Source of the DNA: a virus
Lineage: Duplodnaviria; Caudoviricetes
Strand: one strand, 5' to 3'
DNA length: 64,000 bases
Virus record (IMG/VR): IMGVR_UViG_3300038345_000087
Span: 42,651-106,650 of that record
In this document: positions 1,660-23,015 of the stretch, in pieces
Layout of the letters: each line of letters opens with the position of its first letter
How positions within the stretch are numbered: position 1 is the first letter of the stretch
The notes under the pieces: generated by a model
The model's database searches: none
Told to the model about the DNA's origin: nothing
What the model saw: only the letters and a program-made list of their open reading frames with translations
Made by a program: the position numbers and the translations under genes

Positions 1660-1672
1660 ATCATAAATCAAT

Positions 1673-4213
1673 ATGACTCAAGCCCGTCCAGCCGATTATT
1701 GGTTTTCCAATTCGGCTCTATATATCCAACTGAATGCCGCTGGCGACCCTAATTACATCCATGCCAACTGTTCGTCTGGCTCGGCTGTGTTGTGCTTTAT
1801 GCGCGGCATCAATGGTTTGGGCTATGATAACGGACACAACTATCGGCGATGGTCATTGATAGCGTCGCCGACGGTGTTCCACGATAATGCCGTTCGTTAT
1901 GTCTATATTGCCATCCCGAAAAGTGACGCAGTTGATGTGCCGGCACAAGTGGTGTTCCCTTCGGAGCTGATAGACCTATACGGCTGCAACGAAGGTGGTA
2001 CGCAAATTGGTTCAACGGATTACTTCTACATCTTCACTCAGGGCATCATTTCTCCTTCAGAAGTGAATGGTGTTCGCCAAAACCGCACATGGCAGCAGAA
2101 TGTGGATTGTGGCCAGTTGGCATCGGATGAAGCGATGGCGAATGGAGGCTCTGATTCATGGTGGGAATGGAACAGTGTCACGGACATGGTGAAGTTCCTG
2201 AAGGTGATTTCAGAGGCGACTTTCGATAAACTGACAGCTGCTTGGGCTTCCATCCGGCAACTTGTGTTGAACGGACACATTATCAATGGTGTTGCAGACC
2301 CAGAGACGGCTCAGGATGCCAACGCAGATGACAAGGTGGTGACTCCGGCATACGCTCAGACACAGTACCTATCTCGTACACATGATGACGCTGCGGCTGG
2401 TGATATCACCTTCAACAACTCCATCATGGTCAAAGGTGAGACCATACTGAAGCGTGCTGTCACAATCGGAGAATATGAGAAGGACATCCAAGTAGGTATA
2501 GGTTCACGCACGGGCGCAAAAATTCTTCCAGATGGTACAATCATCGCCCGTAATCTCGAATTATCCGAAAGCCTCCAAGTGCCGACTATCAAATACAACT
2601 CCATTGAGGTGTTGGCTGGCACACGATGGGATTCTGCCGGTAAGGGACGCATCAAGGAGATTATAGCAGTCGATGACAATGCTCATACATGTCAGTTTGT
2701 GCTCGATCTCAACGATGGTGAACCTGGTGAGTTTATTGTCAATGACATCCTTCGTGGCTTCTGGCATAACATGGACGGAACGAAGAATGCACAGAGTAAT
2801 TCTGATGACCGCCGTGGAAATATCACACGTGCGGGGTTCCAGTCCATCTATTGCCGTGTCATCGCCGTGGCGAATGTTGTTGAACGTACCACCGCTGACG
2901 CGACTATCTATATTGCCCAGGACAATCAGTACCTCGCTCAGGAGGGAGATAAGATATTGGCGAATGGACTTGTGACTGTGCAGATGCGTCAGTACAATAA
3001 TGGTTCCGATCCTGCAACGTGGTCGCCAACTCCTGAACAGTGGGCTGTCCTGTCTGTTTCCGGCTTCTTTGGCATCGACCATCCAGAACGTCAGAAGTTC
3101 TTTATCTACACCACGTCGTATATGGCTCGATTTGAGGGTGTCAACACGTGGGAATGGGAGGAACACTGCTTCATGGGAGGTTGGGGCGACTTGACTGGTT
3201 TTGCCATGATTCAGGAGGACGAACATGGTAATATCTCACGCAAGGAGTTTAATGGTGAAGGCTTCGTAACCAAGGATGCACATATATATGGTATTCTGGA
3301 ACAGTTCACCCGTTTCTCTGATCGCATCAACATACTTCTTTCCCGTCCAGATGGAACAATAGCGGATGGAGAGAATATGCGTGCTGACTTTGTTCTCGCA
3401 GACGTGGAGGGCAATATCATTTCGTCGGGCTACCGTCTTGACATCACCCGACAATCTGGTAATGCTCAGGCTGATGCTGCATGGAATACGGCGATGGCCA
3501 CTCGATATCCTGATGGCATACCATCGGCTCTGTATTTCCAGTTCTCCGACGTTCCCGAAAATGGTGCGGTTTATATTGTGGCGGCTTCTCGTCAGGTGCC
3601 AGATGGTACTTCTTATACAACCTATACGACATCGGCATCCTTTGTTCTTTCACGTGCCTACGCTCAGGAGGTTTTCATGGGTGAATGGAGTCCTTTGACC
3701 ACCTATACACGCAATGCTCGTACATATCCGACTGTGACCTATGGAGGTTGTAAGTGGTGGCTCGCTGTTTCAACATCCACAAACGACGAACCGCATCCGC
3801 TTTCTACGAAGTGGAAGATGGTTTATGGCATTAACGACCTCGAAATTCGCTTCTATAATGAGGCGGGCAATCGGATCACCTCTGCTGCTGCCTATCCTGG
3901 CTCTGTCAACATCTATCTGGAACCACGCCTTTTGTGTGGCCTCTATGACATCACGGAATATCTGACGGACTCCGATTGGTCGTGGGATCGTTATACGGGC
4001 AACTATGGCGAACAGACGGACACAAGAACTCCAGCTGATAAGCAGTCAGACCAGGGATGGCGCAATGCTCATTGGCCGTCACAACCAACCACACGCATTC
4101 TCCGTATCACCAACACTGACATGCCTCCTACATGGGGGTCTGGTGTAATGGTAAACTTCATCATAACTTGTAATTATGATGGTCTGATTATTTCTAATTC
4201 TGTCACCTTCTAA
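1673..4213 (+). CDS. Tail/baseplate structural protein
   Basis: 846 aa, beta-rich; YLSRTHDDAAAGDITF resembles a motif in Bacteroidales phage tail proteins; adjacent to tape measure. Confidence 0.6.
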   Translation: MTQARPADYWFSNSALYIQLNAAGDPNYIHANCSSGSAVLCFMRGINGLGYDNGHNYRRWSLIASPTVFHDNAVRYVYIAIPKSDAVDVPAQVVFPSELIDLYGCNEGGTQIGSTDYFYIFTQGIISPSEVNGVRQNRTWQQNVDCGQLASDEAMANGGSDSWWEWNSVTDMVKFLKVISEATFDKLTAAWASIRQLVLNGHIINGVADPETAQDANADDKVVTPAYAQTQYLSRTHDDAAAGDITFNNSIMVKGETILKRAVTIGEYEKDIQVGIGSRTGAKILPDGTIIARNLELSESLQVPTIKYNSIEVLAGTRWDSAGKGRIKEIIAVDDNAHTCQFVLDLNDGEPGEFIVNDILRGFWHNMDGTKNAQSNSDDRRGNITRAGFQSIYCRVIAVANVVERTTADATIYIAQDNQYLAQEGDKILANGLVTVQMRQYNNGSDPATWSPTPEQWAVLSVSGFFGIDHPERQKFFIYTTSYMARFEGVNTWEWEEHCFMGGWGDLTGFAMIQEDEHGNISRKEFNGEGFVTKDAHIYGILEQFTRFSDRINILLSRPDGTIADGENMRADFVLADVEGNIISSGYRLDITRQSGNAQADAAWNTAMATRYPDGIPSALYFQFSDVPENGAVYIVAASRQVPDGTSYTTYTTSASFVLSRAYAQEVFMGEWSPLTTYTRNARTYPTVTYGGCKWWLAVSTSTNDEPHPLSTKWKMVYGINDLEIRFYNEAGNRITSAAAYPGSVNIYLEPRLLCGLYDITEYLTDSDWSWDRYTGNYGEQTDTRTPADKQSDQGWRNAHWPSQPTTRILRITNTDMPPTWGSGVMVNFIITCNYDGLIISNSVTF

Positions 4214-4225: not shown

Positions 4226-7200
4226 ATGGATAAAAAGACCGAAGTTGTCATCACATGTAATTCCAAGCAACCTGTCGCCGCTGTGCGTGCGATGGAAACG
4301 GAATTGAAAAAACTGCAAGGCACTTACCAGCAGCTCGTACAGGCTGGCAAGGCTGGAACAGAACGTGCTAAGACGATGGCGCACGAGATCAAGGAACTCT
4401 CTATTGCTATCAAAGAGGGAAAGGCGAACATGGATAAAATCGTGTCCGTTACGAATAACCTTTCCCAATCTTCACTCTCTCAGTTGCAGCGTGCCCTTCG
4501 TCAGGTGAAGAAGGAAATGTCGCGTGTAAGTACGGATAGCCCGAAACTGGATGATTTGCGTATGAAGTATAAGGCTATCACGGACCAGATTAAGATTCTG
4601 AGTGGTGAAATGCTGAATATAAAGAAGCATATTGGCAACCTCTCTGGAGTGACGGATTCTTGGCTTCAGAAAGCCGTCCAGCAACAGAAAGCCCTGGTGC
4701 AACAGACACGTCAGGGAACATCTGAGTATAACAAGCAGATGAGCGTGCTGTCTCAGCTCTCGACTGAACAGGCACGTCGCGCTGTATCTACCATATCATC
4801 GGGTACTGCCAGTGCAGAACAACTACGTTCTGCCCGTGCTGCCCTCGTTTCTCATCGTGATATGATAGGCTCTGGTGGTATTCAAGTACAGGGCAATCAG
4901 GCAACGGAAATAGCTAAAATCAATGAGGAACTGAAGAAGGCTGATGCACAACTTGATACGATTGCTGGCAAGGAACAGAAATTGGTGTATTCAACACAGG
5001 AAATTGCAGATAAGGCGAATCAGATTATCATGGATCCCAAAAAGTTCACACCAAAGGAGATTGAAACGGCTCTGACTAATGTGAACAATAAATTGAAGGA
5101 AATTCCACTCAATGACCCGTTCCGAAAGCAGCTAAAACAGTCTGCAACACAGTTGAAGGCCATCCTCGATGGCGTGGATAAGGAACTTATCGACATCAAA
5201 AACTTGCTCCAACCGCAAAACCTCAAGAAAGCCTCTCTTGAACAGTTGAAGAATGCGGCTACTCAGTTGGAGAAGGAAATGGCGAAACTCAACCGTGATA
5301 CACAAGAGTATATCAATAAGAAAAGCCAACTGGCTACCATTCGCGGGGAGATAGATAAGGCTACGGGTTCTGTGCATAAACAATCGTCAGCATGGCAGAC
5401 TACACTTCGCAATATGTCGGCATACTTTGGTGCCTTCCAACTGTTCTCTATGGCTATCCAGAAGGTTCAGGCGTTTTTCCGTCTTAACCTCAAATTCTCG
5501 GATCAGTTGGCCGACATTCGTAAGGTGTCCGGCCTCGCTATGCAGGACATCAATAACCTTGCTAATTCTCTTGCAAAACTTGATACTCGCACTACCATTC
5601 AGGAACTTAACGAGATTGCTTATGCGGGTGCCAAATTGGGTATGGGTAAGTATGGCACCGCCGGATTGGAGCAATTCGTTCGTGCGGCTAACCAGGTGAA
5701 TGTGGCACTGAAAGAGGACTTGGGACAGGATGCACTCACGGCTCTCTCTAAGATTACGGAGGTCATGGGACTTATCCCGAAGATGGGCGTGGAGAAATCC
5801 ATGCTGGCTGTAGGTTCTGCCATGTTCCAGTTGTCTGCCACATCTACGGCGACATCGAACAATATCGTAGAGTTCTCAAAACGTCTCACGGGTATGGCTC
5901 GTACAGCCGGTATCACCACGGATCAGCTGCTTGCACTTGGTTCTGCTTCTGATGCTATGTACCTCATGCCCGAAGTCGCCAGTACTGCATTTAATAAACT
6001 TATCACCTCTCTTCAGACGAAGCACAACCTCATTGAACAAGAACTTCAGATTGAACCTGGTACCATCAACAACCTCTATTCTGCTGGCAAGACAATGGAT
6101 GCCATCGTTCTCATCCTCGAAAAGATGAAGGCGAAGGGTAACATGAATGCCCTGCAAGGTGTGTTCAAAGACCTCGGTTCTGAAGGTGCTCGTCTCGTCA
6201 ATGTCATGGTGACGATGAGCAAGAATGTAGATATGCTCAAAGATCACCTCGCTACATCTGAGGAAGCATTCTCAGAGGCGACGGCTGTCACTCAAGAGTA
6301 TGCTATACAGCAAGAAACGGCTAATGCTCTGATGGAGCGTGCTTCAAATATATGGGAAAAATCTTTTATCAATCCGAAGGGCGTAGATAATGTAAAGGAG
6401 TTAGCGCAACAATGGTATAACTTAACAAGGACTCTGACAGAATCTACATTTTTTATGGCACAGGCTAAGGCTGCTATTTGGCTTCTTATTAGTAGCATTA
6501 AAATTTTGATAGCATTACTTCCTGTGTTGATAGAGTTTTTCTTGTTTAGAGGAGCTTATGCTGCTATTATGGCCGTGGTTCGTGGTTTTGTCGCTCTTCG
6601 TACAGCAATTCAGGCGGCTACTGTGGCACAACATGGTTTGAATGCTGCTCAGAAGGCAAATCTATTTGGATTGATAGCGACCCTTATTGCTGCTGCTGTT
6701 AGTTGGTTTATCACGTATCGCGAAAAAGCAGAGGATGCAGCCGAAGCACAGCAAACCGTAAATCATGCTCTTGCTGATGCTCAAGCAGAGTATATGAAAA
6801 CTAAAAAGAAACTTGACGATTATGTTAAGGCTCTTGATGATGCTAATATATCTGAGGACACCCGTCAGAGATTGCTTCGTTCCTTTAATAAGGATTATAG
6901 GATTTATCTGGATAAGTTGGGTATAGAAGTCAATAGCGTAAATGATTTGAAAACGGCTTATGCCAAGTTGAATGATGAGATAAAGAAAAAGGCGTATTAC
7001 GAACTGCGTGAAAGAACGCTCCAATCATACGTTGGTGATGCACAGACGGAACAGGCTAACGCCATGATAGAGTTCCAGAAGGTGATGAAAAAGTATGGAC
7101 TGGATGTTAATGCTGATTATGTGGTGAACAATCAGCATTTGGGTATGGTTGGAGCCACGCGGAAACTTTTAGAAGAACATGCTGGCGCAAAGTTCGTTGG

Positions 7201-9952
7201 TAGGTATAGTAATGGTACGGGTTATAAAGATAATGTTATCTATAGAAATGGCAATTATGCTCAGATAGCTAAAAGTTCGCCTTGGGTGGTTAATACTCCG
7301 TGGATGGATGAGGTGGAAGAGATTTCAACAGCAGTTAATAATATAATAGCTGCTTATCGCGATGTTCGCAGTAAAGAAAAAGAGGTACATGACGCATTTG
7401 ATGGTTTGGTGGGTGATTGGGATGCAGATTTCAGATCTTTAACTGGTGATGAACCGCCTGGATCACTTGATAACAACGCCCCTGACAAAGACGCTCTTCG
7501 TCGTGCCAAAGAAGAAGCTGCTCGCCAGAAGAAACAATGGCGTGATGATCTCAAAGAGGCTCAGGACCGCGCACGCGCCATCATTGATAACATCAAGAAT
7601 TTCTACCAGCGTCAGATTAACGAGGTACTTCGTACTGCCAACGAACAGAATTGGGACACCTCACTCACGGATGCTGCCGTCCGTGCCGTGGAAGGTCGCA
7701 TGAACCTCGCCCTCTCCAATGCTCGCAAGGCGATTGCCGGTGTGCAAAACGATTGGGGCACATTCAAGACGGAAATGGCCGCTGATATGCGGGAAATGGC
7801 GGATGAAACGGGTTATAATGAGTCTCAGCTGTTGTTGAACAGCATTCAAGAGGCTGATCCAGATGCCATCCGTAACCTGATTATGCAACTGTCCTCTAAC
7901 CTCGAATTGCCTCAGAATGCAGCCATCGATGCCATCTGGAAGAATGCTTCGCACAATGAGACGAACATCGAGACAGCTGAACAGAAACGACGCAGGGAGG
8001 TACAGAAGCGACTCCTGGATGACAACTTCACTGGTAAGGTGGATAACGAATACACTAATTCGATGGAAACTCTCGGTTTCTTCGACCTCTCTTCCGAACA
8101 GGCTAACACGTTGCTTGCGGGAGGGGAGGATGCTGAAGCCTTGCTCCAACGTCGTGCTCAGGAAATAGGACAAGTGTTGCAACGTGCCCGTGAGACGAAC
8201 TTGTTTGCAATCCAAGATAAATACGGATTGATGGAGGCTTTGTTTGGTAAGGATTGGCAGTCACAACCGACCGAATTGGCACATGTGCTTGAACTGACTG
8301 GCGATGACCTTCAAGTGTTCTATCGCGAACTGATTAAATACTCTGACTCTTATACTGAAGCCCTCAAACGCTCCCGTGAACGCCAGAAGAAAATCCTTGA
8401 TGAGCAATGGATGAAAACTACCACATTCCATGCTAATGAGGATGCTCAGAAACAGACACAAATGCTTGCTTCTGGTGTGGGACAGTTTTCGGCGAATGTG
8501 CAACAGCAACAGGAGGCGGGCGAAAGCGTACCGCGTAAGGACACCTATGGCACGGCATCGTTTATCTCTTCGATGGGACATGACCCAGAGATAGATTCTT
8601 ACCGTTTGAAGATGGAGGCTGCTGCTGCTTATTATGACTTCCTCAAAGCGCATCAAGCGGATGCTGAAACACTCCGTGACGCAGAACAGGCAATCCTTCA
8701 GTCAGAAATGGAGTATGCTAAATCGGTGGCAGAACAGATGAAGCAGCGCATCAATGACATCTACGAACTTGCTGCTCCTATCGAGGACTTTGGTACAGAG
8801 GTGGGCGAAGCGTTCGCTACGATGACCGAGGATGCAGAAGAGGGACGTAAGGCCATGAAGAAGGCCATCGGCTCCATGATTAAAGCCTTTATGAAGCAGA
8901 CCGTGGAAATGTCAAAGGAGTACATCAAGCGTCGCATGATGCAGAAGATGAACGACAAACTGACATCCAAGGCCATGAAGAAGTCTATCAAACTGGAGAC
9001 TGGACTCGAACAGGATAAGCAAGATGCCGTTCTGGATGTGGCAAAGCAAGGCGGACAAGCTCGTACCTTCCTGAATGAAGAGGTGGAGGGCGATGTACTT
9101 CAGGCAAAGAAGGAAATCGGCAACGAGACTTTGATCACGCAACAGACACAGACGCAACAGGAGGTGCAGACCGAATCATCCAAGACTCAGGCGAACACCA
9201 CAATGGGTATTGCCAGTGGTGCGTCTAAGATCATCGGCTCGCTTGGTTGGTGGGGCATTCCGCTTATCGCCGTTATCACTGCCTTGCTGAATGGCCTCCT
9301 GTCTTTTGCCATGAGCAAGGTGTCCTCGCTTTTTGGTGGAGGCAAGGAGGCTGGTGGCGATGAAGGTCCTAACGTCAAACTGGCTTCTGGTATGTTGACA
9401 TACGACTCTGGTAACGTCCAAGCCTACGCGGGTGTTATCGATGGCAAGACTTACCCCGTTGTGGGTTCCGACGGCAAGGTGTATGCAGCAAAGGATGGCG
9501 GCGAACTTTCTACGGGCCTTGTGAAAGACCCCATCACAACGCTCATCAATGGTCAACCGGCTCTCGTAGCAGAAAAAGGCCCTGAAATGGTGATCGGTAG
9601 AGAAACAACAGCCGCAATGATGATGGCTCGGCCTGATATTATCGCTGAGATAGTGAAGTTCGATAAGAACCGCTCTGGCCAAACGTACCGTGCTTACGAT
9701 GCTGGTAATATCGCGGAACTGATAGCCAATGGTACTGTGCCAAACGGTTTACCCGTTGGGGAAAATGGCCTCACTCCCGAAGATATTGCCTCTCTCCGTT
9801 CTTCTCTGGATGGCTTTGCCGCTGTCATGGCTCTTATACAGAAGAATGGCTTGCACGTCAACAAGTTTGGTCGCGGGTCTGTCACAGAGGCTTCCGCATC
9901 CGGCGCAAAATTCATGCGTCAGAACTCCGGCGATCGTCTTTGGCGTGGGTAA
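4226..9952 (+). CDS. Tail tape measure protein
   Basis: 1908 aa, helical and Ala/Lys/Gln-rich; TP901-type core (FSDQLADIRKVSGL...NIVEFSKRL); hydrophobic segments. Confidence 0.9.
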   Translation: MDKKTEVVITCNSKQPVAAVRAMETELKKLQGTYQQLVQAGKAGTERAKTMAHEIKELSIAIKEGKANMDKIVSVTNNLSQSSLSQLQRALRQVKKEMSRVSTDSPKLDDLRMKYKAITDQIKILSGEMLNIKKHIGNLSGVTDSWLQKAVQQQKALVQQTRQGTSEYNKQMSVLSQLSTEQARRAVSTISSGTASAEQLRSARAALVSHRDMIGSGGIQVQGNQATEIAKINEELKKADAQLDTIAGKEQKLVYSTQEIADKANQIIMDPKKFTPKEIETALTNVNNKLKEIPLNDPFRKQLKQSATQLKAILDGVDKELIDIKNLLQPQNLKKASLEQLKNAATQLEKEMAKLNRDTQEYINKKSQLATIRGEIDKATGSVHKQSSAWQTTLRNMSAYFGAFQLFSMAIQKVQAFFRLNLKFSDQLADIRKVSGLAMQDINNLANSLAKLDTRTTIQELNEIAYAGAKLGMGKYGTAGLEQFVRAANQVNVALKEDLGQDALTALSKITEVMGLIPKMGVEKSMLAVGSAMFQLSATSTATSNNIVEFSKRLTGMARTAGITTDQLLALGSASDAMYLMPEVASTAFNKLITSLQTKHNLIEQELQIEPGTINNLYSAGKTMDAIVLILEKMKAKGNMNALQGVFKDLGSEGARLVNVMVTMSKNVDMLKDHLATSEEAFSEATAVTQEYAIQQETANALMERASNIWEKSFINPKGVDNVKELAQQWYNLTRTLTESTFFMAQAKAAIWLLISSIKILIALLPVLIEFFLFRGAYAAIMAVVRGFVALRTAIQAATVAQHGLNAAQKANLFGLIATLIAAAVSWFITYREKAEDAAEAQQTVNHALADAQAEYMKTKKKLDDYVKALDDANISEDTRQRLLRSFNKDYRIYLDKLGIEVNSVNDLKTAYAKLNDEIKKKAYYELRERTLQSYVGDAQTEQANAMIEFQKVMKKYGLDVNADYVVNNQHLGMVGATRKLLEEHAGAKFVGRYSNGTGYKDNVIYRNGNYAQIAKSSPWVVNTPWMDEVEEISTAVNNIIAAYRDVRSKEKEVHDAFDGLVGDWDADFRSLTGDEPPGSLDNNAPDKDALRRAKEEAARQKKQWRDDLKEAQDRARAIIDNIKNFYQRQINEVLRTANEQNWDTSLTDAAVRAVEGRMNLALSNARKAIAGVQNDWGTFKTEMAADMREMADETGYNESQLLLNSIQEADPDAIRNLIMQLSSNLELPQNAAIDAIWKNASHNETNIETAEQKRRREVQKRLLDDNFTGKVDNEYTNSMETLGFFDLSSEQANTLLAGGEDAEALLQRRAQEIGQVLQRARETNLFAIQDKYGLMEALFGKDWQSQPTELAHVLELTGDDLQVFYRELIKYSDSYTEALKRSRERQKKILDEQWMKTTTFHANEDAQKQTQMLASGVGQFSANVQQQQEAGESVPRKDTYGTASFISSMGHDPEIDSYRLKMEAAAAYYDFLKAHQADAETLRDAEQAILQSEMEYAKSVAEQMKQRINDIYELAAPIEDFGTEVGEAFATMTEDAEEGRKAMKKAIGSMIKAFMKQTVEMSKEYIKRRMMQKMNDKLTSKAMKKSIKLETGLEQDKQDAVLDVAKQGGQARTFLNEEVEGDVLQAKKEIGNETLITQQTQTQQEVQTESSKTQANTTMGIASGASKIIGSLGWWGIPLIAVITALLNGLLSFAMSKVSSLFGGGKEAGGDEGPNVKLASGMLTYDSGNVQAYAGVIDGKTYPVVGSDGKVYAAKDGGELSTGLVKDPITTLINGQPALVAEKGPEMVIGRETTAAMMMARPDIIAEIVKFDKNRSGQTYRAYDAGNIAELIANGTVPNGLPVGENGLTPEDIASLRSSLDGFAAVMALIQKNGLHVNKFGRGSVTEASASGAKFMRQNSGDRLWRG

Positions 9953-10036
9953 TTCGCAAGGAGTCGCCAAAGGCTCCCACATTGGGTTCTTTTCAATAAA
10001 AGTTCGGTATGGTTTTCCCATACCGTTCTTTTTTTT

Positions 10037-10070
10037 GTTCCGTTTACTTCCCCTGTTTCCCCTATCTTTG
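10037..10070 (+). promoter_or_regulatory. Putative phage late promoter
   Basis: GTTCCG-N20-TATCTTTG upstream of the 10093-ACP-KS genes. Confidence 0.7.
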
Positions 10071-10092
10071 CTTTTGAAATTTGAAATCTATT

Positions 10093-11220
10093 ATGGCCGT
10101 ACATATCAATCTTCACCTTCCGACTTCCTATAACCGCTGTTCTCTACCAGAACTGCGTGCTATCGCTGCTGTTATGAGTGACTGTGCCCTTCGTGCTTCC
10201 CGTTTCCATCCGTTTGACATGATGGAAGTGAAGGTGGCCGTGTTTCTCAGACTGACAAACCTCGAAATAGTAGAACCGCTTAATCCACGTGTTCCTGTTG
10301 AGGAACAGTACTACGTTGTGCGCACGCTTCCCTATACTGTCAATGATGAAGAAAGAAGGTGGTTCCGTGTGTTTCGATGGCATCGCAACTTAAAAGCGTG
10401 GTGCCGTCGCCATATCCTCGGACATGATGATTCCTTTTCGCTGTATCTCTGGCAAATACACTCCTGGTTATCTTCATCTAAGAGTCGTGTGACGGGAAAG
10501 GTTACGCCTGGCCTTTTGGACTGGCTGGATGCCGACAACCCAGATTCGTTACTTATATTCCCGTTATCTTCCATTCGTCGAAGTCACCGTGCCAGATGGT
10601 TTCCCTTCGGGTCTAAAGTTACTTTCGCTGGCCCCGCACCCCTGATGGATGGATTTAGTTGGCAACGCTATCGCTTTGCTCAGGACTATATGCAGAATTA
10701 TATCAACGCATCCAATCGCCTTCTCCAGTTGCAAAAGATGGGTAATCGCGCTTCTGCTGCCGACATCCTCCGCGCCTCCAAGAATCTTGACCTCGCAAAG
10801 GCTTTGTTCCTGGCTACCATTTTTTGTCGTCGCATCACTTATGTGGATGAAGAAACGGGGCGTACTAAGACGGATTATCGCTACCAATCTAACCAACATA
10901 TAGACAATGCGCCATATTTCCGAAACTTCCCTGATACGGACTGGCAACTGGTCTTGTTGTGGTGGCAGGGTATGATGCACTACTTACAAAAGACGTACCC
11001 TAAAGTTTTTAAGAAACAAAAGGTATCGAAGGATCAGAAGGCGGCTAATCCGCTTGAACTCTATACTCGCACAACGGCCACAATGGAGAAATACATATCT
11101 GCCACGGCTTCTGAGGTGGATCACGAACCTTATACGACAATTCTTCAACATATCGAAGATATCATCAAGAATAACGAGGAAATGGAACGCATCAATGCTT
11201 CCATGAAACGTAAATCATAA
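10093..11220 (+). CDS. Hypothetical phage protein
   Basis: Long ORF; ATG at 10093 preferred over TTG at 10081 given the promoter position. Confidence 0.6.
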   Translation: MAVHINLHLPTSYNRCSLPELRAIAAVMSDCALRASRFHPFDMMEVKVAVFLRLTNLEIVEPLNPRVPVEEQYYVVRTLPYTVNDEERRWFRVFRWHRNLKAWCRRHILGHDDSFSLYLWQIHSWLSSSKSRVTGKVTPGLLDWLDADNPDSLLIFPLSSIRRSHRARWFPFGSKVTFAGPAPLMDGFSWQRYRFAQDYMQNYINASNRLLQLQKMGNRASAADILRASKNLDLAKALFLATIFCRRITYVDEETGRTKTDYRYQSNQHIDNAPYFRNFPDTDWQLVLLWWQGMMHYLQKTYPKVFKKQKVSKDQKAANPLELYTRTTATMEKYISATASEVDHEPYTTILQHIEDIIKNNEEMERINASMKRKS

Positions 11221-11248
11221 ATTCATCAAATCATCAATTCATTAAATT

Positions 11249-11521
11249 ATGAATACAGAAAAACTTTATTCTCGCGTCCTCGAAATTCTTATGGCGCGTT
11301 ATGACTCTCCATCCATGCCTCCGGCTTCGGAGATAACGATTGACAGTTCTCTTTCTGAGGATTTGGGTATGGAATCGCTCGACATCGTAGATTTCATCAT
11401 CGGCTGTGAGACGGCTTTCGACATCAAATTGGATATGGCCGACGCGAAGAATGTTCATACCATTCGTGATCTTATTGACTTTATTCTGGAAGTGAAGCCT
11501 TCGTTATGCAACCAACTTTAA
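11249..11521 (+). CDS. acpP: Acyl carrier protein
   Basis: 90 aa, acidic; LSEDLGMESLDIVDFI matches the phosphopantetheine-Ser motif; FDI and TIRDLIDFI. Confidence 0.9.
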   Translation: MNTEKLYSRVLEILMARYDSPSMPPASEITIDSSLSEDLGMESLDIVDFIIGCETAFDIKLDMADAKNVHTIRDLIDFILEVKPSLCNQL

Positions 11522-12876
11522 TCACAGGCATTGGCATCTGGTCCTGCATAGGGGAGAATCGTCAGATTGTGGAGCAATCATTACGTGCCGGACGTTCTGG
11601 CATTGGTACGGATTATCGGCGCACGGAATATGGCTATCAGTCGCCGCTCACGGGGGTTGTCCCAGAACCAGACCTGTCACATGAACCACTGCGTAATAGC
11701 CAACGCCGTTGCTTGGCTGAACAATCAGCTTATGCTTACTTTGCTGTGAAGGAGGCTATTGCTCAAGCGGGTCTCACACCTGAACAACTACGCCATGCCG
11801 CGCTTATCGTGAGTAATGACAGTTGTGCCGCTGCTGCCTCCGAAACGGAGGAGGTAATGGCCTTGCACCATGATAGCCGACGTTTGGGTGGTTTCCATGT
11901 GTTCAAGTCACTCAATAGTACAACGTCGATGTCATTGGCTTCGATCTTCGGAATTGGCGGATTGTCCCTCTCCCTCTCTGCCGCTTGTGCTGGTGGTGGC
12001 CATGCTATTGGTCTTGCACACTCTCTTATCAATGCCGGCGTGATAGATACGGCTATTGTTGTGGGTGCTCAGGAGGTGGGGCTTCATTCCTACACCGCCT
12101 TTGATGCACTTGGCGTATTCAGTAAAAACGTGGAAAATCCGTCGGGGGCTTCACGCCCATTTGATGTGCATCGTGACGGTCTTGTGCCTTCTGGTGGTGC
12201 TGCGTGTATCATATTGGAGTCCCGTGCGTCTTTCTCGTTTCGCCTTCCCCAAGTGGATTCTCCCTGTGCGCTCGCTGCTGTTGTTGGCTATGGTTTCTCG
12301 ACATCGCCCAATGTGGTATCTCCATCTTCAGAAAGCATCCTCGCGGCTATGAAGATGGCTATGGGATGTCACCACTTATCTGTCGCGGCTCACCTCTCTA
12401 CAATCTTTCCGCACGCAACATCTACACGCGATGGGGACCGTGCCGAAGCAGAAGCCATCACATCACTTCTTCAGTCCGTTCCAGATAATCCTCTCAGCAT
12501 CTATGCTTGTCTTGGAAATCAGCTTGTAGATCCTCATGCCTCATATAGCATGAATCCGTCAGAGATAGATGGTGTTTCTTCGTGTGGTGGTTTCATAAAA
12601 AAACCGTTAGTGATTCCAACTAAGGCTCTAACAGGCCATGAATGTTGGATGGCTGGTGTATCTCAGATAGTGTATGCTATAATCCAGTCGCAAGGCGGCT
12701 TCGCTACCCCGCACCCCAATTTATCAGAGAAAGACTTGGCAGCATCATCCTTGCACATTCCTACGGATTTGCAACAGTATGACCATACGCTCTTCCTTTG
12801 TAACGCATTTGGATTCGGAGGCACGAACTCTTCCCTCTTGCTTGCTGCACCATCCATGATACCATCTTTGGAATAG
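11506..12876 (+). CDS. Beta-ketoacyl-ACP synthase (FabB/FabF family)
   Basis: ITGIGI, catalytic Cys in SAACAGG, SRPFDVHRDG, His in HATST, His in KALTGHECW, NAFGFGGTN. Confidence 0.92.
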   Translation: MQPTLITGIGIWSCIGENRQIVEQSLRAGRSGIGTDYRRTEYGYQSPLTGVVPEPDLSHEPLRNSQRRCLAEQSAYAYFAVKEAIAQAGLTPEQLRHAALIVSNDSCAAAASETEEVMALHHDSRRLGGFHVFKSLNSTTSMSLASIFGIGGLSLSLSAACAGGGHAIGLAHSLINAGVIDTAIVVGAQEVGLHSYTAFDALGVFSKNVENPSGASRPFDVHRDGLVPSGGAACIILESRASFSFRLPQVDSPCALAAVVGYGFSTSPNVVSPSSESILAAMKMAMGCHHLSVAAHLSTIFPHATSTRDGDRAEAEAITSLLQSVPDNPLSIYACLGNQLVDPHASYSMNPSEIDGVSSCGGFIKKPLVIPTKALTGHECWMAGVSQIVYAIIQSQGGFATPHPNLSEKDLAASSLHIPTDLQQYDHTLFLCNAFGFGGTNSSLLLAAPSMIPSLE

Positions 12877-12912
12877 GGTAGTGCGCATATATGGTGTTTC
12901 TCTGTCTTGTAT

Positions 12913-12944
12913 GCCGCCGTAACGCGGCGGCTGGTATCTTTTTT
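12913..12944 (+). terminator. Intrinsic terminator after KS
   Basis: gccgccg-taacg-cggcggc stem, T-run begins 7 nt later. Confidence 0.55.
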
Positions 12945-13816
12945 CAATCTTCTTATTCGTCGGATTTCATTCGGAGGCTGCCGTCAGGCACGCCTCCGCC
13001 AAAGGTATCTAAACCCACATCGCGCCAGCCTAAACATAAGAGACGCGCTTTTCTTTCTCTTGTATAGAGAAAGGCGCATAATACCCCAATTTAATTCGGG
13101 TACAAAATTACAATTATTTTTTCGCCCCGCCAAACATTTCTGGAGAAATCTTCTGTTTGGACTTCATTTTGTGTTCTTTTTCCCCGAAAAGACGCTAAAA
13201 GTCCCCAAAAGGATGGTATCATTGTCGCTGAAAATCCCTCAGATAACGCTTTTTCCGCATGATTTCGCCCGTCAAAAGGAGAAAATGATGGATTTTTCCA
13301 TACCTCCCAAATTATTTTGCGTCAGAATCTTCTTAGGGGAACGGGGAAACCCCGTACCTCAAAAGTAATTGAGCAATAATGCGAAAGCTCTGCTTTCTTC
13401 TTTGTTGTTCAGTAAGTTATGTGGAGGAAATATGAAAGCAACAATGTGGGCGAATTTGGTTTTTTGTGCCTTTTTCCTCTAATTCATTTTTTCTCATGTA
13501 TGCGTAATGTTATTGAAAAAGAGGGTAAAATAACTTTTTACCTATAAATATAGTTGTATTCCAGATAGTTTCCATAATTTAATTTTCTCTTTTCTCCGAC
13601 TTTTCCCATCTTTTTACAACTTTACACTTGGTAAAAATCATCACCGAAATCGGTTGTAGTCATAGTTGCAAGGAAAAAAGAAGAGTCAAGGGATAAATCT
13701 GTTTCTGATGAATGGTGAAATAACTTTCTTTCCCCGAAAATGGATGCCAAAACCCGAAAATAAAGCTCTGAAGTGTTAAAAATTAGCCATAAATCAGAAT
13801 AAAACCGCGAAATTGT

Positions 13817-13847
13817 TTTGTAAATCCAAATAAAACCTTTATTTTTG
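13817..13847 (+). promoter_or_regulatory. Host-type Bacteroidetes promoter for the early block
   Basis: TTTG (13817-20), 19-nt spacer, TATTTTTG (13840-47): canonical -33/-7 arrangement. Confidence 0.75.
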
Positions 13848-13881
13848 CACTTGAAATCAGTAATTCAAACAGATTAAAACA

Positions 13882-16227: not shown

Positions 16228-16782
16228 ATGAAAACATTTCTCTACATTCTAAAATCTCTGCTTATTGCAGTTGTTGTGATCGTCGCTGTGATGGTCTCTG
16301 AACATTTCCTTGGTCACATGTGGACGGAAGCCATTTTGTTGATTCTCTTGTTGACGATGATTGTATTTGATGTAACCCGTAAAAAGGAGAAACATAATTT
16401 ATCCATTACGATTCACAAGCAGGAGGTGACAACAGAAGGGATTTTGGCTTTTCTTGAAGAGATAGGCAATGATAAAGCCATATCTATTCTTGACAAAGTG
16501 GATAGTTGTATTCAACCTCCATTCGCTGAACTCAATCCAGAACAACAGGTGATGAAGTCTGAGGAGAATGCTATCCGCACTCGACTTCGTGAAACGCTGA
16601 AATTCCTGTCCTCTGACACCTTCAAGTCTTGGTCTGATGAAAAGCAGATGGCACTACGCCGTCAGGTGGGTGCTATGATTTTGTATCATGGCACGCTGTA
16701 TAATCGCTGCACCGACGAAGGGGTACTTATTGAAAGAAAAGAAGAAACTACCGTATCTGCTGATGCGGATAAAGAAGAGTAG
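16228..16782 (+). CDS. Membrane-anchored hypothetical protein
   Basis: Two N-terminal TM segments; helical C-terminus (LRRQVGAMILYHGTLYNR) resembling small conserved phage domains. Confidence 0.6.
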   Translation: MKTFLYILKSLLIAVVVIVAVMVSEHFLGHMWTEAILLILLLTMIVFDVTRKKEKHNLSITIHKQEVTTEGILAFLEEIGNDKAISILDKVDSCIQPPFAELNPEQQVMKSEENAIRTRLRETLKFLSSDTFKSWSDEKQMALRRQVGAMILYHGTLYNRCTDEGVLIERKEETTVSADADKEE

Positions 16783-16786
16783 TAGA

Positions 16787-17362
16787 ATGATTACCATGTG
16801 TCTTGATTGGCGCGATTTCCTCTGCGCCGTGGAGGGTTTCGCGGGCGGTTCTCACCTTCGTCAACACATCTGGCATGAGATAGTAGTTCGTTATATCAAA
16901 CAGATGGATGACTTGGAGCGTGATACGTTATGGTTCTTCTTCCGGCGTGACATTTGGCCTCTTTATTTTGAGAGTGAATTTCACTCGTGTGGTGACAAAG
17001 ATTTCCTTCAATGTATGGCGGCGATGCACCGTGGCAATTATCGCACTATTCGTTTCTGTGAAAACGGAAAGAAAAATGGTAAAAGACATGATCAGAGGTG
17101 CTATCGATTTCAGAATGAATGGCGCGTGGAAAACTCGTTCACGGGTTTCATTCCTGAGAGTTGGATAGTGAAGGTTTCTGACCCTAATCCTGTGCTTGAG
17201 CCGTTGTATATTGAACAGGGTAAAGAGCATTGGTGGAGGGATCTCGAAGTGTATAATACCAACCCTGATGACGTGCGAATACAGACGATGATGGAGGTGA
17301 AAAGACATCATCAATCAAGATTGAACAACTATGTCAAAGAGGTTGATTCTAAAGGCATCTGA
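16787..17362 (+). CDS. Hypothetical protein
   Basis: Tightly packed ORF, ATG at 16787. Confidence 0.6.
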   Translation: MITMCLDWRDFLCAVEGFAGGSHLRQHIWHEIVVRYIKQMDDLERDTLWFFFRRDIWPLYFESEFHSCGDKDFLQCMAAMHRGNYRTIRFCENGKKNGKRHDQRCYRFQNEWRVENSFTGFIPESWIVKVSDPNPVLEPLYIEQGKEHWWRDLEVYNTNPDDVRIQTMMEVKRHHQSRLNNYVKEVDSKGI

Positions 17363-17558
17363 ATGTAAATGCTGCATTTGTGGTAACGCGGCTGTGGCGT
17401 TTTGGCCGAATATCGACCCCGACATTCCATCACATCCGTATTGCCGCAAATGCCTCGATGAGCAACAAATCCAGATGCTTACAGCTACATTTTGCGAAGG
17501 TGACGAAAAAGCAGCTCGCGCAATGCACAAAGCCTTACAAAAAGACAAACAACGATAA
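17331..17558 (+). CDS. Small Zn-finger-like protein
   Basis: CCICG...YCRKC. Confidence 0.55.
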   Translation: MSKRLILKASECKCCICGNAAVAFWPNIDPDIPSHPYCRKCLDEQQIQMLTATFCEGDEKAARAMHKALQKDKQR

Positions 17559-18421
17559 TGACTGTTATTAAGACTACAACACCCATCGCACGCAATGATT
17601 ACACTTGTGATCTGTGCCATCAACAAATTCCGCATGGCACACGATATAAGTGTGTTATTCTGCGTGCAGATGGCCGTCTCGTAACTCAGCACGTTCATCA
17701 GACATGTCCTGCCACGGTGTCAGAAGCATCATCTTCTGGTGTCGTTTCTAATAATCCGCGTCAAACAGCTCCTCTGTTTATCCAGGGGGGGCATACTCCA
17801 GAAGATATTTTTCGCCAACAAATACACGCAGACGTTCAGGCACGCCTCCATAAGTTTACCCGTGAGGAGAACTTACTGATAGCGTATGCGCCACTGGTTA
17901 TTACTGAACTCTCTTGGAGGTTCGCTTTTAAGACTGTTGAATTGGCAGCTCACTATCGTATCTCTGAATTGAAAAAACTGTCACGTACCGTCAAGATGAT
18001 GTTCGAGAAACAGAGGGGGCAATATCTTAAAGACCTCAAACCGTCACATATCAAGCAAATAGAGACACAGACGGACAGATTCATGCAACTGTCATCCTCA
18101 GATCTTACCATCCTATATTTCTCTATCAATAACGAACTTAAAAAGAAGTTTCCAGATCTCTCTTACCTCGATCTGAGAACGGAGGCATGTCGAGCGATGG
18201 TGATGCTGAAGTTTCATAAAGAACATCAGAGAAAAATGGATGCGCTCATTAAGGAGCGTATGGGATATGTCAATCACTATGCAACACCCATACATGATGC
18301 TCTTTATGATGCAATGGATGCCTACGCCGATCCTGCTACTGTTGATTTCTCTGGCCATGTGGCCACATCTATGAAAATCTTACAGAAAAATATAGGTCAA
18401 ATGGACTTTAAGACGTTCTGA
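17558..18421 (+). CDS. Hypothetical protein with N-terminal Cys/His motif
   Basis: ARNDYTCDLC...HQTC; overlapping start/stop with upstream ORF. Confidence 0.6.
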   Translation: MTVIKTTTPIARNDYTCDLCHQQIPHGTRYKCVILRADGRLVTQHVHQTCPATVSEASSSGVVSNNPRQTAPLFIQGGHTPEDIFRQQIHADVQARLHKFTREENLLIAYAPLVITELSWRFAFKTVELAAHYRISELKKLSRTVKMMFEKQRGQYLKDLKPSHIKQIETQTDRFMQLSSSDLTILYFSINNELKKKFPDLSYLDLRTEACRAMVMLKFHKEHQRKMDALIKERMGYVNHYATPIHDALYDAMDAYADPATVDFSGHVATSMKILQKNIGQMDFKTF

Positions 18422-18464
18422 CACTATCGCATGATAATAATAGTTATGTTTAATAGGACGAAAA

Positions 18465-19283
18465 ATGAGTAAAAAGAAAGGTATTATATATCGGCCTGAT
18501 GGCCCTGCCCTCGAATACTCTCCGTGGGGATGCAATCTCTATCGAGGTTGTTCGCATGGTTGCACCTACTGTTATCTTAAACGTGGCTTCCTGAAGAAGT
18601 CTCTTGGTGGCAATACTCCGATTTTGGAAAAGAAGGCAGGACGTACACCGGCTGAAGCATTCCAGAACTTCCGAAAGGAATTGGACGCTAATCGCGTCTC
18701 TATCATCGCTGATGGTGGCATTTTCTTCTCTTTTGCTACTGATCCCATGTTACACGAGACGATCGACCTCACGCTTCAATGTGCATCTTATGCGATGTCT
18801 CATGGCGTGCCTGTTCAAATACTCACGAAGGCTACTTGGTGGGCTAAGGATCACATGCTTTTGAGCAATCTCTTTATCTATCGCCATCTGCTTCGTATTG
18901 GCTTCACGCTGACAGGCCATGATGAAAAGGAACCTGGTGCTCCATCAAACCGCGAGCGCATTGAGGTTATGCGTAAGTTGCATGATATTAAAATCACCAC
19001 CTTCGCATCCATTGAGCCGGTCATAGACTTCGTGGCTTCTCTCGAAATGATTTTTGCCATTAAGGATATTTGCCCTGAAATCCGTATCGGATTACTTTCT
19101 CCATACTCTCCTAAACGCTACGATTGGAACCAATGTGACCGTTTTGTGGATAAGGTGACAGAGGTGGCCAACTATGAAGGGATTACTGTTCATTGGAAGG
19201 AATCTATTAACCGCTTCTATCGTGAAGCAAATCCTGAACATCTACATGCAGATAAAAGTATTACATCTGGTTCTACGATATAA
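18465..19283 (+). CDS. Radical SAM protein (SPL-like family)
   Basis: CSHGCTYC CxxxCxxC motif, FATDP, ILTK, EPGAPS..ERI, SIEPVI. Confidence 0.85.
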   Translation: MSKKKGIIYRPDGPALEYSPWGCNLYRGCSHGCTYCYLKRGFLKKSLGGNTPILEKKAGRTPAEAFQNFRKELDANRVSIIADGGIFFSFATDPMLHETIDLTLQCASYAMSHGVPVQILTKATWWAKDHMLLSNLFIYRHLLRIGFTLTGHDEKEPGAPSNRERIEVMRKLHDIKITTFASIEPVIDFVASLEMIFAIKDICPEIRIGLLSPYSPKRYDWNQCDRFVDKVTEVANYEGITVHWKESINRFYREANPEHLHADKSITSGSTI

Positions 19284-19578
19284 GTGGTATGATATGATAG
19301 CCGATGGCATCAAGAAAGAGGAATACCGCCGCATGACTCCTTATTGGATAAAGCGTTTGGTACAAAATGCCACGATTGAAGGTGATACCAATGTCATTAC
19401 TTTTAAGCCATACACACATGTCTGCTTCCATCGGGCTTATACCTCTACAACGATGTTATTTGAACTGGATGGATTGGGCGTAGGTTATGGAAAGCCGGAA
19501 TGGGGAGCGAAAGACGAACGTACTTTCATCTTACGACTCGGAAAACAAGAACATTGTATTTGGAAATACATAAAATGA
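19246..19578 (+). CDS. ASCH/PUA-like domain protein
   Basis: LHLVLRYKWYDMIADGIKKEEYR...PYWIKRL...GKPEWGA. Confidence 0.7.
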   Translation: MQIKVLHLVLRYKWYDMIADGIKKEEYRRMTPYWIKRLVQNATIEGDTNVITFKPYTHVCFHRAYTSTTMLFELDGLGVGYGKPEWGAKDERTFILRLGKQEHCIWKYIK

Positions 19579-19985
19579 AACAACCACGTATCTACATATC
19601 AGGTCCTATCACAGGACACAGTGACTATAAAGAACGCTTTGCTGAAGCAGCTGATACGTTACGTAAGGCTGGATGGGTGAAACCTGTCAATCCTACGACG
19701 ATGTTCGGCTGGTTCCAACCTGTTTTCAACAGACTACCTTATCGGCTTCAGGTGTTCATTGATTGTATGGTGCTCTCTACGTGTAAAGGCATCTATTTGA
19801 TGTCGGATTACAATTTGTCTCGTGGTGCCCGTCTTGAAAAGGCTGTGGCAGAGTTCTTGCAACTATCCATATATGAGCAAAGGCTTAATAATCCTTTCTC
19901 GCCTCTAATCAAGTCTTTTGTTGATATGGGAGAGCAAATGTCACGATTTAGTTCAATCTGTTGCGGTGCATTCGCAACCAAATAA
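19575..19985 (+). CDS. DUF4406-like protein (nucleoside deoxyribosyltransferase-like fold)
   Basis: IYISGPITG...F..AA..L...VNP...IYLM..Y..SRGARLEKAVA. Confidence 0.75.
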   Translation: MKQPRIYISGPITGHSDYKERFAEAADTLRKAGWVKPVNPTTMFGWFQPVFNRLPYRLQVFIDCMVLSTCKGIYLMSDYNLSRGARLEKAVAEFLQLSIYEQRLNNPFSPLIKSFVDMGEQMSRFSSICCGAFATK

Positions 19986-20007
19986 TAAATAAACAAAATT
20001 TCAAATT

Positions 20008-20514
20008 ATGGGTAAACAAAATCTTTCCATCATGGACCGCATCAAGACTTTCGAGGATGCTGTCAAGGAATTGGGTGAAAAGCACCCCGCCGTATGTGAG
20101 TACAATGCCATCGTTTCCGCCGGTCTTGAAACGTCTATGTCTCCTGACATTCTCGCATACTTCAAACTTCGTATCATCACCGCCGCACTCAATGATGGCT
20201 GGGAGCCTCAGTTTACGGTGGGTGAATATCGCTATTGGCCGTGGTTCTGGCTCTATACACAAGAGGAAGTGGATGCTATGACCGAAGCGGAGCGTTCTGA
20301 GCTGCTGTACGTCGGGGGTTACGCGTCTGACGGTGCGCTATGCGGTATTTCGTATGCGAACTCGATTTACGCTTTCTCGCTCTCGGACGCGGTCATCGGT
20401 GCTCGTCTGGCCTTCAAATCTCAGGAACTCGCGAAGTACGCTGGTCGCCAGTTCATAGAACTGTGGTCTGATTTTTCGTTCAAACCTGTTGACGGGCATG
20501 GCAAAGAAGAATAA
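20008..20514 (+). CDS. Remote DGR target protein 2 (168 aa)
   Basis: Contains VR2 in frame near the C-terminus, ending IGARLAF. Confidence 0.9.
   Translation: MGKQNLSIMDRIKTFEDAVKELGEKHPAVCEYNAIVSAGLETSMSPDILAYFKLRIITAALNDGWEPQFTVGEYRYWPWFWLYTQEEVDAMTEAERSELLYVGGYASDGALCGISYANSIYAFSLSDAVIGARLAFKSQELAKYAGRQFIELWSDFSFKPVDGHGKEE
20299..20409 (+). repeat. DGR variable repeat VR2
   Basis: 111 nt ungapped match to TR; 14 mismatches, all at TR adenines. Confidence 0.95.
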
Positions 20515-20758
20515 CAATAAGCCGCTTGACCAGAAGGCAATTCTCTTACGAGAAATATCAGAGGTTTTCAAACGCCATCAGGCAGATCCTAATATGTCTG
20601 TTGAGGTTTTGGGAGAAATGATGATGCACGTGTTCGTCGCGATGCAAACTTTCACTCCTGATGACATCACTCCTCATATCCTGGCCTTCTTTGACACCAT
20701 GAAGGATAAAGCCTCAGAGGTGTTATCACAAGTTCTGGCGGATAGAAACAAGAATTGA
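20498..20758 (+). CDS. Hypothetical protein
   Basis: Packed ORF. Confidence 0.55.
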   Translation: MAKKNNNKPLDQKAILLREISEVFKRHQADPNMSVEVLGEMMMHVFVAMQTFTPDDITPHILAFFDTMKDKASEVLSQVLADRNKN

Positions 20759-20760
20759 CT

Positions 20761-21087
20761 ATGCCTTACGGAGTTTGTAAAATTTGTGGTTGTACGGATA
20801 ATGATCCGTGTCATAATCCGCTCCACGGTAACTGTTGGTGGGTTGATGAAACCCATGAGCTGTGTAGTCATTGTGCAGATAAATCCATCGCTGATGATCC
20901 AGCAACACAGCACTGTATTAACAGCAAAGGCTTTGACCCCTATCCTGGCATTAAGCGCAAAGACCTTGCTTCTCTTGGTTGTCCTTTTCCTGATGATACT
21001 GGTGATATGTGTGCTGAATGTTCGCACATGAGTTTTACAAGCGTATTTACAGGTGAATGTGATTTAGGTATAAGAATTGATAATTAA
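20761..21087 (+). CDS. Cys-rich putative Zn-binding protein
   Basis: CKICGCTDNDPC...CWWVD...LCSHC. Confidence 0.65.
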   Translation: MPYGVCKICGCTDNDPCHNPLHGNCWWVDETHELCSHCADKSIADDPATQHCINSKGFDPYPGIKRKDLASLGCPFPDDTGDMCAECSHMSFTSVFTGECDLGIRIDN

Positions 21088-21100
21088 AGAATATCAAGTA

Positions 21101-21916: not shown

Positions 21917-21918
21917 TT

Positions 21919-22164
21919 ATGGCTCATTCAACAATGCTTTATGCTGCTGAAATCGGTTTGTGTCTGAAGGAAATCAATATCCCAAAGATGTTTCTGGAAG
22001 ATACACTTCGCAAGATGGCTTCAGAACTCAAGTCTATGGATCCTCAATCAGAGGACTGTAAGCAGTTATCTTACTATGCGCAGATACTCCATGCCGCTCT
22101 CCTCTCAATCAATGCTGCTGAAGATGCTGTATCAGGTCTATCTCTATTGATGCTTAAACAGTAA
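21919..22164 (+). CDS. Hypothetical protein
   Basis: Packed ORF. Confidence 0.5.
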   Translation: MAHSTMLYAAEIGLCLKEINIPKMFLEDTLRKMASELKSMDPQSEDCKQLSYYAQILHAALLSINAAEDAVSGLSLLMLKQ

Positions 22165-22470
22165 TGGTATGACAGAAATTGAAAAGGTACTTCAAGTGTT
22201 TGCTGATAGTGTAGAAAAATTGAGTTATCCTGAACCAACGGGTGATCCCAATAAAGACTACGCTGGTTTCTGGCCTATCATCGAGAAAGAAGAAGCATAT
22301 CATAAGCAATGTGAAATGACTCCAATTTGGTATTAAATTCTTATGAAGAATAACTTAACAATCTCCTTCCGACACTGCTCCACCTGTGGTTATTTCTGTG
22401 ATATGGGATAAAGAAGGTTGGTGTTCATGGCTCGGCACAATGCGCAAAGCAAGACAGCAAGAATGTGAGG

Positions 22471-22950: not shown

Positions 22951-23015
22951 TCGTCATGTATGCTGCTATATCATAGCAGCCAATTTTAATCAATAATTTA
23001 TAAAAAGCAAACATT

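Follow-up and report, generated by a model that had tools for sequence, protein, structure and literature searches.

The 64,000-nucleotide stretch of DNA analysed here (the window) covers bases 42651–106650 of the 106,650-bp IMG/VR record IMGVR_UViG_3300038345_000087 of a gut phage, and all feature coordinates are window-based. It encodes an acyl carrier protein (ACP) and, overlapping it, a β-ketoacyl synthase (ketosynthase, KS). The analysis shows that this phage ACP–KS pair is of pigment-cluster ancestry. We favour, with a confidence only a little above even, the explanation that the pair is a conserved auxiliary cassette, made of a private ACP and a working elongating KS, whose ancestor came long ago from a Bacteroidota cluster of the flexirubin/aryl-polyene type, where it held the position of flxC. 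The features at the centre of this explanation are the following.

11249..11521, + strand: acyl carrier protein, 90 aa (PF00550 at 4e-9; phrog_5934), with the predicted phosphopantetheine serine in LGMESLD

11506..12876, + strand: β-ketoacyl synthase of the FlxC-position pigment-cluster type, 456 aa (PF00109 at 1.6e-27 and PF02801 at 1.7e-8, both above cut-offs)

12466..12600, + strand: variable KS insertion of ~45 aa (residues ~321–365) before KALTGHE, missing in FabB, FabF and flx KS

Cys161, His303, Lys373, His378 and F437 (in GFGGTN) of the KS aligned to C163, H298, K328, H333 and F392 of FabB, and the Cys161/His303/Lys373/His378/GFGGTN set was invariant in 15 phage homologs. An earlier interpretation of this DNA, made by a model from the letters alone (the sequence-only reading), had claimed an intact Cys-His-His triad, and the alignment bears this out. 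Judged by these residues, the KS is predicted to be catalytically intact. The same reading had noticed an insertion of about 40 aa before KALTGH. The insertion is real, at ~45 aa, but it is a variable loop of low model confidence. Its length differs among close phage relatives, where it is shorter or longer, and residues 348–363 showed a predicted local distance difference test (pLDDT) value <50; it is probably a flexible surface loop. The whole KS model from AlphaFold2 (AF2) had a pLDDT of 86.5 and a predicted template modelling score of 0.90. It showed a thiolase-like fold, and its best Foldseek matches were FabB enzymes with a template modelling (TM) score of 0.92 and an E-value of 1e-39.

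The solved structures nearest to the KS in both sequence and fold are FabB enzymes (1dd8, 4xox and others), which favours another explanation, namely that the KS and ACP replace host FabF and AcpP and so keep membrane synthesis running or redirect it. We consider this support or takeover of fatty-acid synthesis rather unlikely, because the KS lies far under the cut-offs of both housekeeping models. It scored 232 bits against the FabB equivalog NF005935, its best NCBIfam match (cut-off 630), and 173 bits against the FabF equivalog TIGR03150 (cut-off 494). The low NF005935 score and the position of E. coli FabB in another well-supported clade ruled out an assignment as FabB. Housekeeping FabF was ruled out by the TIGR03150 score and by an identity of 23–27% to E. 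coli and Bacteroidales FabF; the KS groups with pigment-cluster KS instead. Beside the active site, at the third of the motifs described below, the phage KS has GHECWM, compared with GHSLGAAG in FabB and GHLLGAAG in FabF. An ApeR-type initiating KS was also tried and rejected, since the identity was 24.6% and ApeR fell in a separate clade with a support of 99.

A scan of one genome per prokaryote species gave four KS loci in Bacteroidales metagenome-assembled genomes (MAGs), with 39–41% identity. The nearest cellular KS homologs overall are also from Bacteroidales (40–48% identity). Among 301 sampled Bacteroidales genomes, 61 contained a homolog at E<=1e-60, and none was more than 48% identical. 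In two of the four MAG loci (L036 and L038) the KS lies in the same type of cluster, with some variation in gene order. The order is a tyrosine-type ammonia-lyase (TAL), a short-chain dehydrogenase/reductase (SDR) ketoreductase, the KS, an ACP, an LpxL-type acyltransferase and an O-methyltransferase, followed by further KS genes and a second ACP. By this gene content the MAG clusters are of the flexirubin/aryl-polyene type. In Chitinophaga pinensis the order is flxA (TAL), flxB (reductase) and flxC (KS) (PMC3992019). The lyase–reductase–KS order of the MAG clusters is the flxA–flxB–flxC order, and the link to FlxC (Cpin_1855) is therefore one of gene order, not of sequence. No biosynthetic step assigned to FlxC was found in the literature consulted.

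Three motifs, GNDS, HATST and TGHE[CM]WM[AS]G, were common to the phage KS, the MAG KS and the wider clade, and FabB, FabF, ApeR and ApeO were without them. Trees were built with FastTree (132 sequences) and with IQ-TREE under LG+G4 (65 sequences), with FabF as outgroup. In both trees all phage KS formed one clade (SH-aLRT 88–91). This clade stood beside the bacterial flx-type clade (support 98), as its sister and not nested in it. Phage and flx-type KS together fell within a branch (98–99) that excluded E. coli FabB, ApeR, ApeO and FabF and also Bacteroidales FabF. The sequence-only reading had likened the GHECWMAG motif to pigment-cluster KS more than to housekeeping FabF, and had named a phylogeny as a check. 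The Bacteroidales flx-type homologs, the shared motifs and the trees, which place the phage KS beside bacterial flx-type KS and apart from FabB and FabF, bear out that comparison.

The small protein upstream of the KS contains a PP-binding domain, as given by the PF00550 match and a conserved serine at the start of helix II. Its scores were under the cut-offs of the NCBIfam ACP models. It had been described earlier as an ACP with ESL in place of DSL, which is correct for LGMESLD. Four relatives retained the carrier serine within DSLD or DSID, compared with ESLD here, so ESL is a quirk of the ACP of this phage. The local scores of the ACP against E. coli AcpP, ApeE/F, the cluster ACPs and MAG AcpP were close together and slightly higher for housekeeping AcpP. 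This slight preference speaks for the fatty-acid explanation, as does the occurrence of auxiliary ACP genes in PHROGs and of fabG-acpP-fabF in predicted Rhodobacteraceae prophages (PMC8224337).

The pair is widespread among phages. KS proteins with 54–70% identity formed >120 clusters (at 90% identity) on contigs up to about 100–107 kb, and one cluster of 42 KS sequences was 99% identical to the window KS. A profile scan of IMG/VR gave 185 stretches encoding KS relatives, and 80 loci were kept. In four nearly complete relatives (G001–G004; 95–98%, CheckV) the order was tape measure protein (TMP), ACP, KS, ~1 kb of non-coding DNA, orf129, primase and ThyX. In the window, orf129 is the first gene of the primase–ThyX unit downstream of the KS. 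An independent 90-kb viral contig, L070, showed TMP, the gene of a 375-aa protein, ACP, KS, orf129, primase and ThyX, as here. L075, a single more distant relative, showed ACP, KS, orf129 and primase, and no KS was seen in one more distant relative of 80% completeness. L075 also carries a second ACP gene ~5 kb downstream of its ACP–KS pair (L075:11963–12184), 53% identical to E. coli AcpP.

A second, distantly related group comprised ~59 contigs of 55–110 kb, with a KS of 37–41% identity and the order KS then ACP. There the pair lies between homologs (38–47% identical) of the 903-aa and 344-aa genes of the window genome. In the relative G001 the same slot is held by the 375-aa gene, followed by a 618-aa gene. 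In both lineages the pair was always among presumed structural genes, and ACP and KS were always kept together. None of the phage-type loci showed a lyase, reductase, acyltransferase, methyltransferase or FabD/G/H close to the KS. A few weaker scan matches had 26–33% KS identity, one of them with FabG- and AcpP-like genes alongside. Two others of them, the IMG/VR contigs L135 and L136 (2545824709_000007 and 2802429224_000007), had a KS that matched E. coli FabB exactly or almost exactly, so these 'viral' contigs probably include host DNA (prophage flank or mis-binning).

The 106,650-bp genome is 100% complete by CheckV and has a terminal direct repeat of ~110 bp. The pair thus has the features of a phage auxiliary (moron-type) gene, that is, a cellular-type gene in a complete phage genome which is also present in G001–G004 and in many viral contigs. 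The unit is not an assembly chimera or a recent host capture. Both possibilities had been named in the sequence-only reading as ways in which its proposal could fail. The identity to any homolog in the 301 Bacteroidales genomes is at most 48%, far from near-identity to a host gene, and the pair is conserved in related phages. The GC content and the GC content at third codon positions (GC3) of the unit resemble those of neighbouring phage genes. The only point in favour of an artefact, in which a chimera or a freshly captured host gene would have no role in the phage, is a block rearrangement in this genome compared with G001–G004. The independent contig L070 has the same gene order as the window, the 99% identical KS cluster holds 42 sequences, and contigs up to 101 kb encode members of clusters with 98% identity to the 375-aa protein. 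With dN/dS also well below 1, an artefact is extremely improbable.

The dN/dS values were 0.03–0.04 for the ACP (pairs with unsaturated dS) and 0.05–0.2 for the KS. Both ACP and KS are kept under purifying selection. The sequence-only reading had proposed acylation of a virion protein, a change of the host envelope or a decoy function as possible roles. This result also bears on the idea that the ACP, the KS or both act as a decoy in counter-defence, binding a host factor such as an ACP-sensing or ACP-using defence or toxin and making no product. The lack of detected partner enzymes would suit a decoy, and the genome carries another counter-defence gene (Tad2-like domain), although neither point is specific. 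Pure binding would not need a full KS catalytic set that is invariant and under purifying selection in two lineages, and ACP and KS are always kept together. A decoy is therefore very unlikely.

A Pfam scan of the whole genome covered 114 predicted proteins at E<=1e-4 (two ORFs spanning the locus borders and all ORFs <60 aa were left out). It detected DNA methylases, a ligase, a sliding clamp, ParA-like ATPases, a reverse transcriptase, a Tad2-like domain, an amidase and a holin. No acyltransferase, reductase, dehydratase, thioesterase, AMP-ligase, FabD or phosphopantetheinyl transferase (PPTase) was found among these proteins. The earlier observation that no acyltransferase, reductase or PPTase is visible thus extends to the whole genome, and the description of the pair as a minimal acyl-chain module, ACP and KS with no further lipid enzyme detected, is supported. 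As no partner enzymes were found in the genome, the pair must depend on the host for activation, loading and all steps after condensation.

The mechanism that we propose follows this dependence. Judging from the shared promoter motif and the placement described below, ACP and KS would share transcription with the virion genes. A host PPTase would convert the ACP to its holo form and host FabD would load malonate on it, since neither enzyme was found in the phage. The KS dimer would accept an acyl or aryl-acyl primer on Cys161 and condense it with malonyl-ACP by means of His303, His378 and Lys373. The intact residues and the fold suggest that the product would be a β-ketoacyl chain bound to the phage ACP. 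The host type II fatty-acid synthesis (FAS II) system or host pigment-cluster enzymes would then have to reduce and dehydrate this chain and pass it to a lipid acceptor. The net effect late in infection would be to divert host malonyl and acyl flux into a chain specified by the phage, which would most probably end up in an envelope lipid or a pigment-like lipid.

The surroundings of the pair are given by the following features.

4226..9952, + strand: tape measure protein, 1908 aa (PHROG tape-measure families, best 1.7e-30; Pfam PhageMin_Tail 1.3e-9)

10005..10034, + strand: terminator-like hairpin and T-run after the tape measure gene, 8-bp stem (consensus match only)

10035..10071, + strand: late-type promoter motif TTGTTCCG-N20-TATCTTTGC (5 exact genome copies)

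10093..11220, + strand: conserved phage protein, 375 aa from ATG (379 aa from TTG at 10081), first gene of the unit here

12913..12945, + strand: terminator-like hairpin GCCGCCG-loop-CGGCGGC and T-run, 37 nt past the KS stop codon

Three ORFs are open on the + strand, 10081/10093–11220 (379/375 aa), 11249–11521 (90 aa) and 11506–12876 (456 aa), and the ACP stop and KS start overlap by 16 nt. Terminator-like hairpins lie on both sides of the unit; by narrower limits they span 10005–10025 and 12913–12931. This agrees with the overlapping ACP and KS after a 375-aa gene of no assigned function that the sequence-only reading had described. The reading had also put the unit right after the tape measure, and the PHROG and PhageMin_Tail matches of the 1908-aa gene confirm it. 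In most relatives the gene directly upstream of the ACP–KS pair is likewise the tape measure, and G001–G004 all show the order TMP, ACP, KS.

The late motif proposed earlier is a real motif. The spaced sequence TTGTTCCG-N20-TATCTTTGC occurs 5 times in the 106.6-kb genome, compared with 0 expected, and always on the + strand. The copies precede the genes at 520, 10093, 36250, 44274 and 51702, each before an operon of the structural half, and the 3' part of the motif matches the Bacteroidetes -7 box TAnnTTTG. Its 'late' timing is suggested by the genes that follow its copies, and the late-type placement of the unit is supported to that extent. Around the KS of 14 relative loci, no copy of the motif in this phage's spelling was detected. 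A shorter motif, TTTGCNNTTGAAAT, common to the stretches before the 375-aa gene and before orf129, was not kept as a signal, since it had 3 matches and 5 of 100 shuffles equalled this number. An exact TTTGCnnTTGAAAT box is also present at 10067–10080, before the 375-aa gene, and at 13844–13857, before orf129; two copies are not clearly above chance.

The placement is the main argument for virion- or assembly-linked lipid chemistry. This explanation holds that an acyl chain sits on or in a virion component (a tail protein, the tape measure or the 375-aa protein), or that KS and ACP are carried in the particle and act at entry. In its favour, the cassette is within or at the end of presumed virion blocks in both lineages, despite the differing position and order, and the unit has the same late-type promoter motif as the operons of the structural half. 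The slot of the cassette in the second group, between the 903-aa and 344-aa homologs, is the place of the 375-aa gene in G001, and in the subclade of this phage the 375-aa gene is adjacent to the pair, before or after it. However, the Pfam scan found no acyltransferase or lipoprotein-type transferase in the genome, and the structural role of the neighbours is taken from their position, as PHROGs gave most of them no function. Ends and gaps of late operons commonly host accessory genes of any function, and the 375-aa gene occurs much more widely than the KS, mostly without linkage to it. We therefore rate this explanation as unlikely, although the constant placement among virion genes keeps it in play. 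A narrower form, in which the particle itself needs a lipid or polyene chain that is bound to a tail or ejection component or travels with it, the tape measure and the 375-aa protein being candidates, is distinctly unlikely. If true, it would mean phage-directed lipid chemistry that serves assembly or entry and not host metabolism.

The 375-aa protein had no match in Pfam, NCBIfam or PHROG. Its 228 homolog clusters contained no Pfam domain, and the few names given in the sources were 'hypothetical protein'; an Atlas search likewise gave viral hypothetical clusters only. The AF2 model was confident (pLDDT 90.9). Foldseek gave no PDB fold match at E<=0.001, and VIA-align wide gave only helical-hairpin matches with Z ~5, below the stated noise level. 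In G001–G004 the gene is ~44 kb from the ACP–KS pair, with the 903-aa and 618-aa genes on either side. In this phage and L070 it comes before the ACP, and in L069 after the KS, so that adjacency is limited to the subclade. Being adjacent only sometimes, the 375-aa gene is not a fixed third member of the ACP–KS module, and the three-gene unit of the sequence-only reading is not supported by this synteny. By its position the gene is probably structural. Its recurring closeness to the pair is noteworthy but proves nothing.

Returning to the cassette of pigment-cluster origin that we favour, several points weigh against it. Many proteins, the 375-aa protein among them, are unannotated, and the Pfam scan could have missed an enzyme there. 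A virion-related role and late metabolic reprogramming would account equally well for the constant position of the cassette among virion genes. The single phage KS clade is only moderately supported, and the ACP is not clearly closer to cluster ACPs than to housekeeping AcpP. As the phage KS is far diverged from bacterial KS, its substrate may have changed. The bacterial homolog was present in only one-fifth of the sampled Bacteroidales genomes (61/301), and the host of the phage may lack a pigment cluster.

Other observations concern the rest of the genome and its relatives. No near-identical DNA was found among GenBank phages. A tblastn search of the same phages gave matches of <=37% identity only, mostly short fragments or records filed under phages of other hosts; these carried phage names of E. 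coli, Listeria and Staphylococcus, and several were annotated fabB or fabF. Neither a tRNA nor an integrase was detected in this genome. With no integrase found, the lifestyle could be virulent or plasmid-like. The first part of the record (G000:C1 1–42650) and window positions 16228–28252 carry ParA-like ATPases, a HicA-like toxin domain, the Tad2-like anti-Thoeris domain, YopX proteins, the reverse transcriptase and several DNA methylases. Compared with G001–G004 (for G001, L023–L028), the presumed structural blocks are reshuffled in this phage and L070 (window 520–4213, 10093–11220 and 55818–60364). In these two, the tape measure comes after the 379-aa and 846-aa genes and is itself followed by the 375-aa gene, and the 190-, 251- and 903-aa genes are at the other block end.

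Between the KS terminator and the replication genes lies a low-GC (0.38) non-coding kilobase (12877–13881) with no conserved ORF. About 280 nt of it (about 13263–13543) are 70–74% identical at the DNA level to four relatives whose flanking proteins are only 55–70% identical, and short segments of ~24–35 nt in the 13070–13110 region show 92–96% identity to relatives. An Rfam search of the stretch gave no match. Possible identities of the conserved part are an origin of replication, an early control region and an RNA of no known family.

Most of the lipid-synthesis genes known as auxiliary genes of phages are scattered and of the housekeeping type. Here selection maintains a pigment-cluster-type KS and a carrier in hundreds of abundant phage genomes of the gut and rumen type, which reach ~110 kb. 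A selected cassette among presumed late virion genes, with no other pathway enzyme, implies a defined chemistry that is imposed on Bacteroidales hosts or used for particles. It would link aryl polyenes and flexirubins, the most widespread Gram-negative biosynthetic cluster family, to phage infection. The system is experimentally tractable, as it has two small genes and clear catalytic residues, and the ACP cargo can be read by mass spectrometry.

Among known systems, the flx-type KS with its cluster ACP in Bacteroidales (L036, L038) is the most similar. It provides the closest cellular sequences, shares the motifs, forms the sister clade and has the ACP beside the KS. The flx-type clusters, however, have TAL, ketoreductase, dehydratase, a second KS/chain-length factor, LpxL-type acyltransferase and methyltransferase, none of which was found in the phage. 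The phage KS also differs in lying among virion genes, in its long divergence and in its ~45-aa variable loop. E. coli FabB (KAS I) has the same fold (TM 0.92), the Cys-His-His-Lys set, GFGG and about 31–35% identity. It differs in having GHSLGAAG where the phage KS has GHECWM after the second His, and the phage KS has no FabA partner and a context other than fatty-acid synthesis.

The aryl-polyene pathway of E. coli and Xenorhabdus uses the ketosynthases ApeR and ApeO-ApeC and the carriers ApeE/ApeF (PMC8253772, citing Grammbitter et al.). The same source describes E. coli aryl polyenes as outer-membrane lipids which protect from oxidative stress and promote biofilm, and ApeR, the KS following the ketoreductase ApeQ, as needed for initiation in vitro (PMC8253772). 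The phage pair resembles this pathway as a type II, fatty-acid-like polyketide system with dedicated ACPs, and the position of ApeR after ApeQ parallels that of the flx-type KS. In contrast, ApeR and ApeO are placed in separate clades and share only 23–25% identity with the phage KS. As ApeR is in another clade, the functional analogy to an initiating KS comes from gene order alone.

A literature search that included LoVEphage and Quimbyviridae found no published description of a phage KS/ACP cassette. In PHROGs, ACP genes are classed as auxiliary, with acpP alone as phrog_5934. The nearest printed precedent is acpP or fabG-acpP-fabF in predicted Rhodobacteraceae prophages (PMC8224337), where genes for a carrier and a condensing enzyme are likewise present without a complete pathway. 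Those prophage genes are of the housekeeping type, keep the host operon order and occur in a few predicted prophages, whereas the KS and ACP described here are of the pigment-cluster type and are selected across hundreds of phage contigs, in a presumed structural block.

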